Below, one piece after another: positions 1,706-34,208 of a stretch of 37,691 nt of DNA. The stretch is from a virus (Duplodnaviria > Heunggongvirae > Uroviricota > Caudoviricetes). The notes under the pieces were generated by a model. That model ran no database searches. It was given only the letters and a program-made list of their open reading frames with translations, and was not told the origin of the DNA. Location: positions 1 to 37,691 of IMG/VR virus record IMGVR_UViG_2751185969_000015. One strand, written 5' to 3'. Numbering within the stretch: the stretch's first letter is position 1; every line of letters begins with the position of its first letter. Made by a program: the position numbers and the translations under genes.

Positions 1706-1767
1706 GTTGGTTTTTCTCCACGGATTTACCGACAACCGAAGCCCTGACTGTTCCCGCAGTTGGGGCT

Positions 1768-1989
1768 TCACTGTTTTTGTAAGTCACTGTAGCTATAAAG
1801 CCACTGACCACTCATTTTTGATTTGATTGACTCTACTGAATCACGGCAAGGAATGATTCCGCCTGACATCATTCTGATCTCCGTAAATTCACCACTCCTT
1901 ATCGATTCAATGCCATCAATGTTAACTAAAGATTTACCTCTACCAAGTGCATTCTCATAGCCAATCTCATCAACCTCAATAAACCTCAT
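1768..1989 (-). CDS. Hypothetical 73-aa protein inserted between arc and ant
   Basis: [29 protein letters not shown]...; its ATG overlaps the arc stop (ATGA), suggesting translational coupling. No family recognised. P22 has no gene between arc and ant. Confidence 0.5.
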
Positions 1990-20627: not shown

Positions 20628-21065
20628 TCATTTCAGGCATTGCGTCCTGATGTATTCCTGCAGGTAGCTAACCTGCGCGGTTATCCTGTCGATTCCACTT
20701 CTGAGACGGTAATAATTGAGTTCAGCATCTGCTGTAAGTCTTGGGCTTTCTCCATCGCCCATGCTGCTGGCTCCGGTCGTTGGCTTTGCACAGGTGGCGG
20801 CGACTTGCAGGCGCTTACGACCAGCAGAAACATCAGCACGGAGGCTTTCGATAGTCTCGTTAGCATCAGCAAGCTCCTTTGTGTATCTGGCGTCGAGTTC
20901 TTCTACATCACGTTGACGCTTCTGCATGTCAGCAATTGTGGATGCGGCCTTATCGCGCTGCTCTTTGTAGGCGATGGCGTTATCACGGTAGTGATTAACA
21001 GCCCATGACAGGCAGACGATGATGCAGATAACCAGAGCGGAGATAATCGCGGTGACTCTGCTCAT
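20628..21065 (-). CDS. Rz: i-spanin Rz
   Basis: [39 protein letters not shown]..., N-terminal TM anchor and coiled-coil; lambda Rz-like. Confidence 0.85.
20681..20872 (-). CDS. Rz1: o-spanin Rz1 (lipoprotein embedded in the +1 frame of Rz)
   Basis: ORF wholly inside Rz in another frame; lipobox LVVSAC followed by a Pro-rich region ([13 protein letters not shown]). Exact start among the in-frame Met codons is uncertain. Confidence 0.7.
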
Positions 21066-21538
21066 ACCTCAATCTCTCTGACCGTTCCGCCAGCTTCTTT
21101 GAATTTTGCAATCAGGCTGTCAGCCTTATGCTCGAACTGACCATAACCAGCGCCCGGAAGAGAAGCCCAGATATTGCTGCAACGGTCGATAGCCTGACGG
21201 ATATCACCGCGATCAATCATCGGCAAAGCGCCACGCTCTTTAATCTGTTGCAATGCCACAGCGTCCTGGCTTTTCGGAGAGAAGTCTTTCAGGCCAAGCT
21301 GCTTACGATAGGAATCCCACCAACGGGAAAGAAGCTGGTAGCGCCCGGCTGCTGTTGATTTGAGTTTCGGATTTAGCGTGACAAGTTTGCGAGGGTGATC
21401 AGAGTAATCAGTGAATAGCTCACCACCTACAATGACGTCATAACCATGATTTCTGGTTTTCTGACGTCCGTTATCTGTTCCCTCTGACCACGCCAGCATA
21501 TCGAGGAACGCCTTACGTTGATTATTGATTTCCACCAT
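21062..21538 (-). CDS. R: Endolysin R (lambda-type lytic transglycosylase)
   Basis: [53 protein letters not shown]..., matching lambda R. Confidence 0.9.
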
Positions 21539-21845
21539 CTTCTACTCCGGCTTTTTTAGCAGCGAAGCGTTTGATAAGCGAACCAATCGAGTCAGTACCG
21601 ATGTAGCCGATGAACACGCTCGTTATATAAGCGAGATTGCTACTTAGTCCGGCGAAGTCGAGAAGGTCACGAATGAACCAGGCGATAATGGCGCACATCG
21701 TTGCGTCGATTACTGTTTTTGTAAACGCACCGCCATTATATCTGCCGCGAAGGTACGCCATTGCAAACGCAAGGATTGCCCCGATGCCTTGTTCCTTTGC
21801 CGCGAGAATGGCGGCTAACAGGTCATGTTTTTCTGGCATCTTCAT
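21522..21845 (-). CDS. S: Holin S (lambda S107/S105 dual-start type)
   Basis: [67 protein letters not shown]..., essentially lambda S, with the Met-Lys-Met dual-start motif. Confidence 0.9.
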
Positions 21846-22087
21846 GTCTTACCCCCAATAAGGGGATTTGCTCTATTTAATTAGGAATAAGGTCGATTAC
21901 TGATAGAACAAATCCAGGCTACTGTGTTTAGTAATCAGATTTGTTCGTGACCGATATGCACGGGAAAAACGGCATGAGGTTGTTAGCGCGACCTCCTGTC
22001 ACCCGCTTTCACGAAGATCATGTGTAGAAGGCCGCAGCATAACTATCACTGATGAATTCAGGATAGCCAGTGGCTACGGCTCAGTTA

Positions 22088-22163
22088 TGGTGCTGGTTAA
22101 CGGACTTGAACCGCTAGCCATTCGCTTACAAGGCGACCGCTCTACCATTGGAGCTAAACCAGC
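22088..22163 (-). tRNA. tRNA-Thr (anticodon UGU), 76 nt with encoded CCA
   Basis: Hand-folded reverse complement GCTGGTTTAGCTCCAATGGTAGAGCGGTCGCCTTGTAAGCGAATGGCTAGCGGTTCAAGTCCGTTAACCAGCACCA. Perfect 7-bp acceptor stem, D-arm GCTC/GAGC, anticodon loop CUUGUAA, T-loop UUCAAGU, discriminator A. One mismatch in the anticodon stem. Confidence 0.6.
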
Positions 22164-22168
22164 ATGTT

Positions 22169-22243
22169 TGGCGGGACAGCGTGGACTCGAACCACGATAA
22201 GAAGGTTAACAGCCTTCCGTAATGACCTTTATACGACTGACCC
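22169..22243 (-). tRNA. tRNA-Asn (anticodon GUU), 75 nt with encoded CCA
   Basis: Hand-folded reverse complement GGGTCAGTCGTATAAAGGTCATTACGGAAGGCTGTTAACCTTCTTATCGTGGTTCGAGTCCACGCTGTCCCGCCA. Anticodon loop CUGUUAA and T-arm GGTTCGAGTCC as in E. coli tRNA-Asn. One mismatch each in the acceptor and D stems. Confidence 0.6.
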
Positions 22244-22306
22244 AAATAAAAAAAGCCACCGTTGCAACTTAAGAGTCACTAACGGCAGCTTACCTTCTAA
22301 TTATGG

Positions 22307-22825
22307 CTAAATGGATAATTGCATGTCAAGGCTTTTAACAGCAACATGCTTAACTTTCTCAACACGTTTACGCATTTTGAAAGCATTTTGCATTGGCTGG
22401 TACAAAACAAATAACGACGCTTTCAGGATGTCGTCAATTTCGTTTCTACAGGTTGCCATTGAAGGTTTTCTCCATCCCTCGCCACCACGTCCACACATCT
22501 TGCGTGGCTTTGCAGTCGCGTGATAGTAGGATGCAATTGCTCGCTTAGATGAACCATGAGCGTAGTAGCTGAGGAGGATGCCAAAGGCTTTTTTGTCAAT
22601 GTACATGACGGAATCGACGACCTGAGAAATCAACATTCCATCATCATCATTGCACATTGGCCTTGTCATAACTCTTCCCGGCTCTACGCTCTCCATGAAC
22701 TTCGCTATTACGCTGCTCATACGCTTTTCAAGACGACCTGAATAAACCCATGCGCCCCACAGTTCAAGCCAGCCATTCAGCCACTCGTGCTGTTCTTTGG
22801 TGAGGTTTAGCTCTCTTATGCTCAT
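22307..22825 (-). CDS. Q: Late-gene antiterminator Q (phage 82 / P22 gp23 family)
   Basis: Motifs WLELWGAWV, RPMCNDDDGMLI and LLSYYAHG match the 82-type Q family signature; sits at the end of the nin region, upstream of the lysis genes. Confidence 0.75.
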   Translation of the reverse strand: MSIRELNLTKEQHEWLNGWLELWGAWVYSGRLEKRMSSVIAKFMESVEPGRVMTRPMCNDDDGMLISQVVDSVMYIDKKAFGILLSYYAHGSSKRAIASYYHATAKPRKMCGRGGEGWRKPSMATCRNEIDDILKASLFVLYQPMQNAFKMRKRVEKVKHVAVKSLDMQLSI

Positions 22826-32643: not shown

Positions 32644-32798
32644 GTTTTACAGATAACTGGTCAGACGAAGAATTCATTCGTCAGATGAAAGAATTAATCG
32701 GTAACGAAGGAGATATTCATGTCACTTGCAACCACAGTGAAGGAGAGCAAGTTACAGAGACGCATGTACACGCAGAAAGCTCTCTGGTATCGCCATAA
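32640..32798 (+). CDS. Small acidic protein upstream of erf (arf-position)
   Basis: 52-aa ORF MSFTDNWSDEEFIRQMKELIGNEGDIHVTCNHSEGEQVTETHVHAESSLVSP; ATGA overlap with the preceding ORF. Confidence 0.35.
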   Translation: MSFTDNWSDEEFIRQMKELIGNEGDIHVTCNHSEGEQVTETHVHAESSLVSP

Positions 32799-32899
32799 TG
32801 GCGACCGCGAAGGAATGCGGGTATGCCTTAATTTGTCCCGAGTCGAAGTATTAAATCAGCGTTATTTCCTTGGGCCGTGTCCATTCTGAGAACAAACAT

Positions 32900-33505
32900 A
32901 TGAGCAAAGAATTTTACGCAAGACTGGCAGCTATTCAGGAGAATCTGAACGCGCCAAAAAATCAGTACAACTCATTCGGTAAATATAAATACAGAAGCTG
33001 CGAAGATATTCTTGAAGGCGTTAAGCCGTTACTGAATGGTCTGTTTTTATCAATCAGCGATGAAGTTGTGTTGATTGGTGATCGGTATTACGTGAAAGCC
33101 ACGGCAACTATTACCGATGGCGAAAACAGTCATACGGCAACCGCTCTTGCACGAGAGGAAGAAAGCAAGAAAGGAATGGATTCTGCACAAGTTACGGGAG
33201 CTACAAGCTCTTATGCACGCAAGTATTGCCTCAATGGTTTGTTCGGCATTGATGATGCAAAAGATGCAGATACCGACGAGCATAAACATCAGCAGAACGC
33301 AGCAGCAAAGCAATCAAAACCATCACCTACACCTGAACAGGTTCTAAAAGCATTCACTGACGCAGCATTGCAGAAAAACACCGTAGAAGAGCTTAAACAG
33401 GCGTTCGCCAAAGCGTGGAAGATGCTCGAAGGCACACCTGAGCAGCACAAAGCGCAGGACGTTTACAACATCAGACGAGACGAATTAGAAGGAGCGGCTG
33501 CTTAA
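32900..33505 (+). CDS. erf: Erf single-strand annealing recombinase
   Basis: Start at internal ATG 32900: MSKEFYARLAAIQENLNAPKNQYNSFGKYKYRSCEDILEGVKPLLNGLFLSISDEVVLIGDRYYVKATATITDGENSH... closely matches P22 Erf. Confidence 0.85.
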   Translation: MSKEFYARLAAIQENLNAPKNQYNSFGKYKYRSCEDILEGVKPLLNGLFLSISDEVVLIGDRYYVKATATITDGENSHTATALAREEESKKGMDSAQVTGATSSYARKYCLNGLFGIDDAKDADTDEHKHQQNAAAKQSKPSPTPEQVLKAFTDAALQKNTVEELKQAFAKAWKMLEGTPEQHKAQDVYNIRRDELEGAAA

Positions 33506-33888
33506 TGGCACATTCGATTACTGTAAGACTAAACAAGCCCGCAAGAGAGTTTCAGGCCGGGGAAAATATCGGATTCAACATCCGTGCTGGCGCTCAGTAT
33601 TACGATCGCCAGACAAAAAAGAAAGAATGGACAAACTACAGCGCCGTTGTATTTGCCAAGCCGGGAGCGCAAGCGGATTACTACCGTAGTGTTCTTGTTG
33701 AAGGTTGCATTGTGGAAATTACCGGAGAAAACATCAGGGTTGATGTTTATCAGGGGCAAAATGGTCAATCAATCACTCTTGAATTACTGAATGCAAAGAT
33801 TGGATTTGCAACTTCAGGAAACAGCCAACAGCAGCAAAGTAGCAATCATCAAAATAATCCTGAATACGACGATTCCATCCCATTCTGA
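33505..33888 (+). CDS. SSB-like single-stranded DNA-binding protein
   Basis: 127-aa ORF whose start overlaps the erf stop (TAATG). Gln-rich linker and C-terminal ...EYDDSIPF resembling the conserved SSB acidic tip (DDDIPF). Confidence 0.55.
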   Translation: MAHSITVRLNKPAREFQAGENIGFNIRAGAQYYDRQTKKKEWTNYSAVVFAKPGAQADYYRSVLVEGCIVEITGENIRVDVYQGQNGQSITLELLNAKIGFATSGNSQQQQSSNHQNNPEYDDSIPF

Positions 33889-33911
33889 TTTAGAAAAATA
33901 AGGATTTAATT

Positions 33912-34208
33912 ATGCCAGCGCCTCTGTATGGTGCGGATGACCCGCGCAACTGCTCCGGTAGCTCCAAGGCGGAGGTGCTGGAGAATATCAAAAACAATTT
34001 CGACGCGTTTCTTGCTCTGACACCAGAAACAAAAGCAGAACGGATGTACCGACGCGATATACAACTCGCGCTAAAACAGGAGAAGGACCGAACAAACGAA
34101 ACAGCAATGAGACCGTTGCGAAAAGCGACAATAGACAAACTCCCTGAATATATCGACCCGCGCCTGCGTAATTACCGCTCACGCTATGGCGCTACCAGTA
34201 ATGACTGA
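33912..34208 (+). CDS. Hypothetical early-left protein
   Basis: 98-aa [44 protein letters not shown]... with AAGGA RBS. Confidence 0.5.

Follow-up and report, generated by a model that had tools for sequence, protein, structure and literature searches.

The IMG/VR virus record IMGVR_UViG_2751185969_000015 (Caudoviricetes), analysed here as a single stretch of 37,691 nucleotides (nt; hereinafter, the window), contains two adjacent tRNA genes, one for tRNA-Asn(GUU) and one for tRNA-Thr(UGU), between the gene for the late-gene antiterminator Q and the lysis genes. ARAGORN calls exactly these two tRNAs in the entire 37.7-kb sequence, and the Rfam tRNA model RF00005 recognizes both, with 61.2 bits for tRNA-Thr and 55.3 bits for tRNA-Asn against a gathering score of 29 (whole-window E-values of 5e-11 and 2e-9, respectively), so that chance matches are ruled out. 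A previous, sequence-only reading of the window had proposed two tRNA genes with encoded CCA, 5 nt apart, in the slot 22088-22306, on the late-transcript strand between the Q stop codon (22307) and the lysis cassette. All of this is borne out: both programs find the pair, Q and the holin (which starts at 21845) are identified by the Pfam domains PF06530 and PF05106, and Q, the tRNA pair and the holin all lie on the minus strand, with the pair between Q and the lysis cassette (Table). The window represents a mosaic P22-like phage whose closest relative is CUS-3 (69% covered at 95%), and the region is best explained as the leader of the late operon in a P22-like (CUS-3/Sf6-like) temperate phage, with a mobile two-tRNA cassette inside it.

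Table. The tRNA locus and the adjoining genes, in their order along the minus strand
Feature	Position	Strand	Basis
Late-gene antiterminator Q, phage 21/L type, 172 aa	22307..22825	-	Open reading frame (ORF); Pfam PF06530 Phage_antitermQ, E 1.1e-25
Late promoter PR': -35 TTGACA (22329-22324), 18-nt spacer, -10 CATAAT (22305-22300)	22300..22329	-	Promoter scan, 11/12
Putative Q-binding element (QBE), tandem 8-mers AATTATCC / ATTTAGCC	22305..22320	-	Read from sequence
Late-leader intrinsic terminator tR': imperfect hairpin core (22289-22255) and U7 tract (22254-22248)	22248..22291	-	Fold
tRNA-Asn(GUU), 75 nt, CCA encoded, discriminator G	22169..22243	-	ARAGORN; Rfam 55.3 bits
Inter-tRNA spacer AACAT, 5 nt	22164..22168	-	Sequence
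tRNA-Thr(UGU), 76 nt, CCA encoded, discriminator A, G27xA43 mismatch	22088..22163	-	ARAGORN; Rfam 61.2 bits
Structured 242-nt spacer, 5' untranslated region of the lysis genes	21846..22087	-	Conserved in Sf6, HK75, HK446
Lambda S-type holin/antiholin, dual start (MKM...), 107 aa, first protein gene of the late operon	21522..21845	-	PF05106, E 2.4e-30
Endolysin	21062-21538	-	ORF
Rz spanin	20628-21065	-	ORF; PF03245

Both molecules show the canonical features of elongator tRNAs (a 7-nt anticodon loop, U33, a purine at position 37, a T-loop of the form GTTCRA and the 3' CCA), with the anticodon loops CUGUUAA and CUUGUAA and the T-loops UUCGAGU and UUCAAGU. The identity elements required by the cognate synthetases, namely, G34, U35 and U36 together with G73 for Asn, and G1-C72, C2-G71, G35 and U36 for Thr, are all present and are shared with the host genes asnT and thrU. 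The stems harbor several mismatches, U4xU69 and U13xU22 in tRNA-Asn and G27xA43 in tRNA-Thr, the last of which shortens the anticodon stem; in addition, position 14 of tRNA-Thr is an unusual C. The sequence-only reading had noticed the mismatches and took them as a reason to doubt that the tRNAs function. The mismatches exist but the doubt does not follow because G27xA43 is one of the two published determinants of resistance to the OLD nuclease (PMC12445682), and those in tRNA-Asn are conserved across alleles. The tRNA-Thr of the window carries G26 and C47, both outside the anticodon arm; of the 33 copies in viral contigs described below, all have G47 and none has C47, and only four have G26. 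The genome of Escherichia coli strain GF43 contains an exact match to the whole 156-bp pair, so the G26/C47 allele is real.

The leader that precedes the tRNAs has the organization of a Q-controlled late leader. The CATAAT element that had been flagged as -10-like is indeed part of a near-consensus sigma-70 promoter, TTGACA-18-CATAAT, which overlaps the 3' end of the Q gene and has the same sequence as the bases annotated PR' in Sf6 and HK75. The two 8-mers AATTATCC and ATTTAGCC match exactly the sequence that has been put forward as the QBE of phage L (PMC8022706), which suggests that Q may bind here. Between the promoter and the tRNAs lies a hairpin with a folding energy near -20 kcal/mol (z = -4.58, a stability not reached by any of 200 shuffled sequences), homologous to the bases annotated tR' in Sf6 and HK75; a simple terminator scan missed this structure because of its long stem and bulge. 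The T-run that the sequence-only reading described as ending directly at the first tRNA is present, but it is the tail of this hairpin rather than a bare run, and the nucleotides AUUU separate it from G1 of tRNA-Asn (22243), so that tR' ends 4 nt upstream of the gene. That reading included neither the terminator nor the counter-defence function discussed below. Apart from PR', the promoter scan upstream of the tRNAs detected nothing other than a weak 9/12 site inside Q, which speaks against a separate promoter for the tRNAs. Given that the tRNA genes are located behind PR' and a terminator that Q overrides, Q-dependent expression is the natural reading of this layout. In phage BTP1, which has the same cassette, the start of the lytic operon has been placed directly after the tRNA pair; the BTP1 lysogen transcriptome leaves both tRNA genes out of the list of highly expressed genes and is uninformative on their abundance (PMC7067206).

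The spacer downstream of the tRNAs is strongly structured. When folded with a few extra bases (21836-22087, 252 nt), it has a minimum free energy (MFE) of -79.8 kcal/mol, with z = -4.64 compared to shuffled sequences; a long hairpin starts 8 nt past the CCA end of tRNA-Thr, and a lambda-type stem-loop occupies the 3' end, just ahead of the dual-start holin. Conceivably, this spacer could influence 3' processing of the tRNAs or the stability of the late mRNA. An Rfam search of the leader, the spacer and the HK75 segment described below detected no known RNA family except for tRNAs.

The cassette is common and evolutionarily conserved. The 156-bp pair is present in 369 of 5,426 complete E. coli genomes (6.8%, i.e., about 7%), where the Prokaryotic Genome Annotation Pipeline (PGAP) annotates it routinely, and a 481-bp query comprising the leader, the tRNAs and the spacer finds 172 phage records (90-99% identity), in many of which both tRNAs are annotated; they include Sf6, BTP1, SPN9CC, Kapi1, mEp506, HK446 and CurroJimenez_Bas106. 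We further surveyed 119 viral-contig loci that share the start of the lambda-S holin and scanned each of them upstream for tRNAs; 109 extend for at least 700 nt in that direction. Of these 109, 33 loci (about 30%) have exactly the pair Asn(gtt)+Thr(tgt), with an unchanged distance to the holin; the remaining 76 (approximately 70%), the lambda-like ones included, have no tRNA, and other tRNA combinations upstream of lambda-type holins were found in none of the 109. The tRNA-Asn is identical in 23 of the 33 loci, the variants being mainly in loops; one allele has A12G, which produces a G-U pair, and the U4xU69 mismatch is conserved. In tRNA-Thr, one related locus shows the compensatory change of G5-C68 to U5-A68, and the changes A49G and C68T preserve wobble pairing. 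One pair-breaking allele was found in each of the two genes, and the inter-tRNA spacer is AACAT or AATAT in all 33 loci. Nucleotide diversity, computed on 28 loci and the window, is 0.0054 for tRNA-Asn and 0.0117 for tRNA-Thr, 5-fold and 2-fold below the 0.0253 of the adjacent spacer, respectively. The holin gene has a diversity of 0.0044 for codon positions 1+2 and of 0.0104 for position 3, so the constraint on tRNA-Asn is about that on holin codon positions 1+2.

The cassette is found behind at least three types of leader: with the L/Sf6-type QBE, with the phage-21-type QBE and with the lambda-type 6S terminator (HK446). In every leader type, the sequence TTTTTT(T)ATTT stands directly ahead of tRNA-Asn, and in the alignment of the window with HK446, which has a lambda-type Q, homology begins at the terminator T-run. 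In one viral contig (locus L097), the lambda-type tR' stem-loop that precedes the cassette reads as the precise reverse complement of its normal form: the hairpin has been inverted in place, with the T-run kept.

In lambdoid phages that lack the tRNAs, the same slot is occupied by unrelated fillers of about 200 nt (lambda-like, HK75-like and others), most of which end at a common right-hand boundary with a short hairpin and then CGCCACA-A-CCC. Phage HK75 has a window-like leader and spacer, with an unrelated segment of about 205 nt exactly replacing the two tRNAs. In an unconstrained fold, this segment (approximately 1085-1292 of locus L002) adopts a tRNA-like structure, with a 7-bp acceptor stem, a D arm, a canonical T arm (GCCGG-UUCGAUU-CCGGC), an ACCC tail and, in the center, additional hairpins of some 70 nt. 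The segment has an MFE of -45.7, compared to -38.8 +/- 4.2 for shuffled sequences, and ARAGORN calls it at a relaxed threshold only. The HK75 filler may be a decayed or unusual tRNA-like gene.

Recent work on tRNA-cleaving defence systems appears to be directly relevant to the two anticodons. The P2 OLD protein, the effector of the classic P2-lambda interference, kills cells by cleaving host tRNA-Thr(UGU) at a paired CNG motif (positions 28-30 and 40-42) and so removing its anticodon arm, host tRNA-Asn(GUU) being a slower substrate; phage tRNA-Thr(UGU) alleles rescue cells from OLD, and the resistance of tRNA-Thr requires an altered CNG motif together with the loss of the 27:43 pair, as exemplified by tRNA-Thr6 (U43A) and by tRNA-Thr21 (C28U/G42A and a short stem) (PMC12445682). 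The AriB nuclease of the PARIS system cleaves host tRNA-Thr(UGU), a prime target, and tRNA-Asn(GUU), a secondary target, between positions 40 and 41 in the context U36-A-A-U39-C40-N41; the U39A replacement abolishes and A41C reduces cleavage (PMC12409363). The Lys, Thr and Asn tRNAs of phage T5 jointly rescue cells from PARIS (PMC11464382, PMC12409363). Furthermore, the tRNA-Thr(UGU) of phage HK446 provides strong counter-defence against OLD for HK97, HK542 and Bas34, whereas the tRNA-Thr(UGU) of E. coli has no effect on OLD-sensitive phages (bioRxiv 10.64898/2026.07.10.737580).

A position-by-position table of the relevant tRNAs reproduces the published host motifs, CUG/CAG and UAAUCA in thrU and CGG/CCG and UAAUCC in asnT. 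In the tRNA-Thr of the window, the 28:42 pair is U28-A42, the respective segments are UCG/CGA, so that CNG is found on neither strand, the 27:43 pair is lost (G27xA43), and the AriB site is UAAGCG instead of the host UAAUCA. Thus, A43 is the same base as in tRNA-Thr6, and U28-A42 corresponds to the C28U/G42A replacements of tRNA-Thr21. The tRNA-Asn has A28-U42, the segments AAG/CUU, again with CNG on neither strand, and UAACCU in place of UAAUCC; with all three cleavage motifs lost, it is devoid of any known OLD or AriB recognition motif. It retains, however, G27-C43 and, with it, the full 5-bp anticodon stem; the requirement for the loss of 27:43 has been established for tRNA-Thr only. The window tRNAs are 63-70% identical to the host tRNAs and 62% identical to the T5 tRNAs, which indicates that they are foreign genes rather than mutated host copies. 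The latter value also rules out kinship with the T5 tRNAs and implies an independent origin.

The reading that we favor, and that appears fairly probable, is that the locus is a Q-dependent leader in which the tRNA pair acts as nuclease-resistant replacements for host tRNAs, with extra capacity for ACA decoding as a secondary function. Under this scenario, RNA polymerase would start at PR' and, without Q, would stop at tR'; the layout is seen in the window, and the behavior is extrapolated from phages 21 and L. Once Q loads at the QBE, the polymerase would read through tR' into tRNA-Asn, tRNA-Thr, the structured spacer, the lysis genes and the virion genes, in that order. Host RNase P and 3'-processing enzymes would be expected, on general grounds, to excise both tRNAs, which would need no CCA addition because the CCA is encoded. 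The released pair would replace host tRNAs that have been destroyed by the abortive-infection tRNases of the ABC-ATPase/Toprim class, P2 OLD and PARIS AriB, which are carried by competing P2 prophages and P4 satellites, and would keep ACA and possibly AAY codons (Y, pyrimidine) readable during late protein synthesis. The tRNA-Thr is expected to decode ACA and to resist OLD, as suggested for this exact allele by its similarity to the HK446 allele, and, judging by its bases at the cleavage site, it probably resists AriB as well. For tRNA-Asn, we hypothesize that it withstands both nucleases and supplements the decoding of AAY codons. The extra ACA capacity would be a secondary benefit that is consistent with the codon counts given below. 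The phage also encodes Erf and the anti-RecBCD protein Abc2, the class of locus that gives rise to OLD triggers.

Several observations weigh against this interpretation. Two positions, 26 and 47, distinguish the tRNA-Thr of the window from the OLD-tested allele of HK446, and the full 5-bp stem of tRNA-Asn leaves it with one of the two factors that underlie OLD resistance in tRNA-Thr. The absence of CNG and UAAU is the default in unrelated tRNAs (host thrT likewise lacks them), so the loss of these motifs would be a necessary but weak indication of resistance and, for tRNA-Asn, only a permissive one. The small ORF (32719-32889) immediately upstream of erf is not similar to Gp33, the OLD trigger of HK75. 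The main target of PARIS is tRNA-Lys(UUU), which the phage does not supply, so that the cassette alone cannot defeat B185 PARIS. In the OLD experiments, neither lambda nor recB toxicity was rescued by a single tRNA, and HK446 depends mainly on Oad2, a protein inhibitor (bioRxiv 10.64898/2026.07.10.737580). Finally, since the tRNAs would be made only after Q, and since Q and the early genes use ACA at a normal rate, early translation would stay exposed; the protection conferred by the cassette would be partial and centred on the late phase. A bolder version of the favored reading holds that the Asn+Thr pair is a dedicated counter-OLD/PARIS cassette, in which tRNA-Asn is resistant and needed for full rescue, that its placement 4 nt behind tR' was selected for bulk output when Q opens the late operon, and that the tRNA-like fillers of the lambda/HK75 type are decayed relatives; we advance this version tentatively, with more doubt than conviction.

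The most substantial alternative is pure codon supply, whereby the tRNAs would boost codons that are over-used by the AT-richer phage during the late burst. Greedy ORF calls of the window were compared with 42 annotated genes of MG1655, a small sample from a strain that may differ from the true host. ACA is used at 16.6 per 1000 codons in the phage and 5.4 per 1000 in the host sample, a 3.1-fold excess (p ~ 8e-17) that speaks for this explanation; it is spread evenly, with about 16-17 per 1000 in early as well as late genes. In Q, ACA is not depleted (1 observed vs 3.1 expected, P 0.18), and no avoidance of this codon was found in Q or the early genes, a feature that would have made a late-only rescue self-consistent. 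For Asn, the numbers are much less favorable: AAC is not enriched (odds ratio 0.97), AAT is only 1.5-fold higher in the phage, and E. coli has four tRNA-Asn genes. Moreover, AGA (9-fold), AGG (7-fold) and ATA (3.6-fold) are over-used far more, and yet the phage encodes no tRNA for these codons. The host thrU is a single-copy gene, in agreement with a need for supply. Its product is of low abundance (PMC12445682), and the same ACA bias has been reported for phage SfI, with no bias in Asn codons, and the authors called tRNA-Asn unexplained (PMC3636060); in the coat gene of phage L, AAC is dominant (PMC8022706). Codon supply has indeed been proposed for SfI and phage L, as well as for the ileZ-argN-argO genes of Shiga toxin (Stx) phages. 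However, both tRNAs of the window differ from their host counterparts at precisely the positions that the nucleases recognize, and phage alleles of tRNA-Thr(UGU) rescue from OLD whereas extra E. coli tRNA-Thr(UGU) does not, which implies that the sequence of the allele matters and not dosage alone. The suggestion of the sequence-only reading that the tRNAs supplement codons accordingly stands for ACA, fails for AAC and receives only the modest AAT excess. Taken together, these observations partly support supply: it is a reasonable benefit of tRNA-Thr(UGU) and a poor explanation of tRNA-Asn, and we reject it as the full explanation and consider pure supply unlikely.

A second alternative is that the tRNAs serve as an RNA-processing or module-boundary element, by providing RNase P/RNase E sites that free the Q-loading leader and a stable 5' end of the lysis mRNA, or that they are simply recombination hot-spots passed along through mosaic exchange. 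This is compatible with the fact that the cassette always abuts the terminator T-run, where the homology between Q types begins, with the strongly structured downstream spacer (z -4.64), and with the tRNA-like fillers that, in tRNA-less phages, end at the same boundary. Nevertheless, 70% of the lambda-S-type loci manage without a tRNA, the anticodon loops, identity positions and CCA are intact, the constraint extends over the whole molecule, and the HK446 tRNA-Thr works as a decoding tRNA in trans, all of which makes this alternative improbable.

Two further explanations can hardly be maintained. That the tRNAs are decayed pseudo-tRNA relics or chance cloverleaves might be suspected from U4xU69 and U13xU22 in tRNA-Asn and from G27xA43 and C14 in tRNA-Thr, but is contradicted by scores about twice the Rfam gathering threshold, the compensatory change, the retention of the genes across hundreds of phages and prophages under a constraint above that of the flanks, the functional HK446 allele and the status of the 27:43 mismatch as a selected resistance feature. 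Equally remote is the idea that the pair makes up for a host tRNA gene that an integrating prophage has disrupted, which rests on the frequent integration of temperate phages into tRNA genes and was raised for HK446 (bioRxiv 10.64898/2026.07.10.737580): genes behind tR' in the late operon are in the wrong place for expression in the lysogen; P22-like phages use thrW (CGU) or argW/argU, where the gene is rebuilt on integration (phage L and epsilon34 papers) and neither site matches GUU or UGU; and the attachment sites of Sf6, P22 and epsilon34 are not in asn genes or thrU, so that the anticodons and the late-operon position are inconsistent with this explanation.

Elsewhere in the window, there is a full-length match to sar RNA, the antisense RNA of the P22 immI region (1706-1772, plus strand; Rfam RF00262, 87.3 bits), adjoining a 300-aa ORF on the opposite strand (803-1705) that presumably encodes the antirepressor. 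This match identifies the window as a phage of the P22-like kind that has an immI region. A P22-type recombination locus at 32900-34208 (plus strand) encodes an Erf-like annealing protein, an SSB-like protein and the anti-RecBCD protein Abc2 (PHROGs).

The existence and placement of the tRNA pair are already known and have been annotated since Sf6, and published work on the near-identical HK446 allele already assigns the Thr member a role in counter-defence, which ties the cassette to P2 OLD and the classic P2-lambda interference. What is new here is a testable hypothesis for tRNA-Asn, a gene that has lacked an explanation since 2004 and went unnoticed in HK446, the phage used for the OLD experiments. 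A more general rule for annotation also follows, namely, that mismatches in the anticodon stems of phage tRNAs can be adaptive and need not mean decay.

Among the known systems, the closest is Sf6 (AF547987), in which PR', qut, tR', tRNA-Asn, tRNA-Thr and the holin follow in the same order, on the same strand and with the same spacing as in the window; this identical layout supports the view, put forward in the sequence-only reading, that lambdoid phages carry tRNA genes in the Q-to-lysis slot. The Sf6 record labels PR', the qut site and tR' "similar to phage 21". Gene 59 of Sf6, annotated as similar to phage 21 Q, is the counterpart of the window Q, genes 60/61 are the counterpart of the holin, and genes 62/63 correspond to the endolysin and Rz. 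Over 481 bp, the window is 97.1% identical to Sf6 and 97-98% identical across Sf6 and the other phages with this cassette (96-98% for the cassette as annotated in Sf6), with the same Q family and lambda-type lysis genes. The tRNA-Asn is identical in all 75 positions in the window, Sf6 and HK446, whereas the tRNA-Thr has G26/C47 in the window and A26/G47 in Sf6 and HK446. In addition, the window differs from Sf6-type cassettes by one base in the first QBE repeat (T vs G) and by one extra T in the terminator; there is no difference in kind. The same cassette is present in phage 21, SfI, BTP1, SPN9CC, Kapi1, mEp506 and CurroJimenez_Bas106. Asn-GUU and Thr-UGU downstream of Q have been reported for SfI and also for Sf6, ST64T, PS3 and p21 (PMC3636060), and the pair is described as well in the phage L paper (PMC8022706), the epsilon34 paper and the phage 21 genome announcement; the function and mode of expression are stated as not known in the phage L (PMC8022706) and SfI (PMC3636060) papers. 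Phage L and ST64T share with the window the slot, the Q/QBE type and Asn(GUU) as the first tRNA but have Leu(UAA) instead of Thr(UGU) as the second, along with different lysis genes and a different holin. In HK446, a lambda-type Q, PR' and tR' precede the cassette, in contrast to the phage-21/L-type Q of the window; the HK446 tRNA-Thr, in the same position after tR', is identical to that of the window in 74 of 76 positions and has the same anticodon arm. ARAGORN shows that HK446 carries both Asn(gtt) (1211-1285) and Thr(tgt) (1291-1366; positions of locus L007, JQ086372), whereas no tRNA is annotated in the corresponding GenBank entry and the preprint mentions just one, Thr(UGU) (bioRxiv 10.64898/2026.07.10.737580).

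Outside this group, the parallels concern placement in one case and function in the other. In Stx phages of the 933W type, the ileZ-argN-argO genes occupy the slot between Q and the stx/lysis genes, on a Q-controlled late transcript like that expected for the window. The Stx-phage tRNAs read the rarest codons (AUA and AGA/AGG), which fits supply, whereas, for the window, ACA is moderately rare and AAY codons are common. The tRNA-Lys/Thr/Asn of T5, which act against AriB, and tRNA-Thr6 and tRNA-Thr21, which act against OLD, are rescue tRNAs of virulent phages and resemble the window pair in that their anticodons are those of the host targets. The window pair is a two-gene cassette of a temperate phage, under Q control, in contrast to the large early/middle array of the T5-type rescue tRNAs, and the pair and these rescue tRNAs show substitutions at the same recognition positions (28:42, 27:43, 39 and 41).

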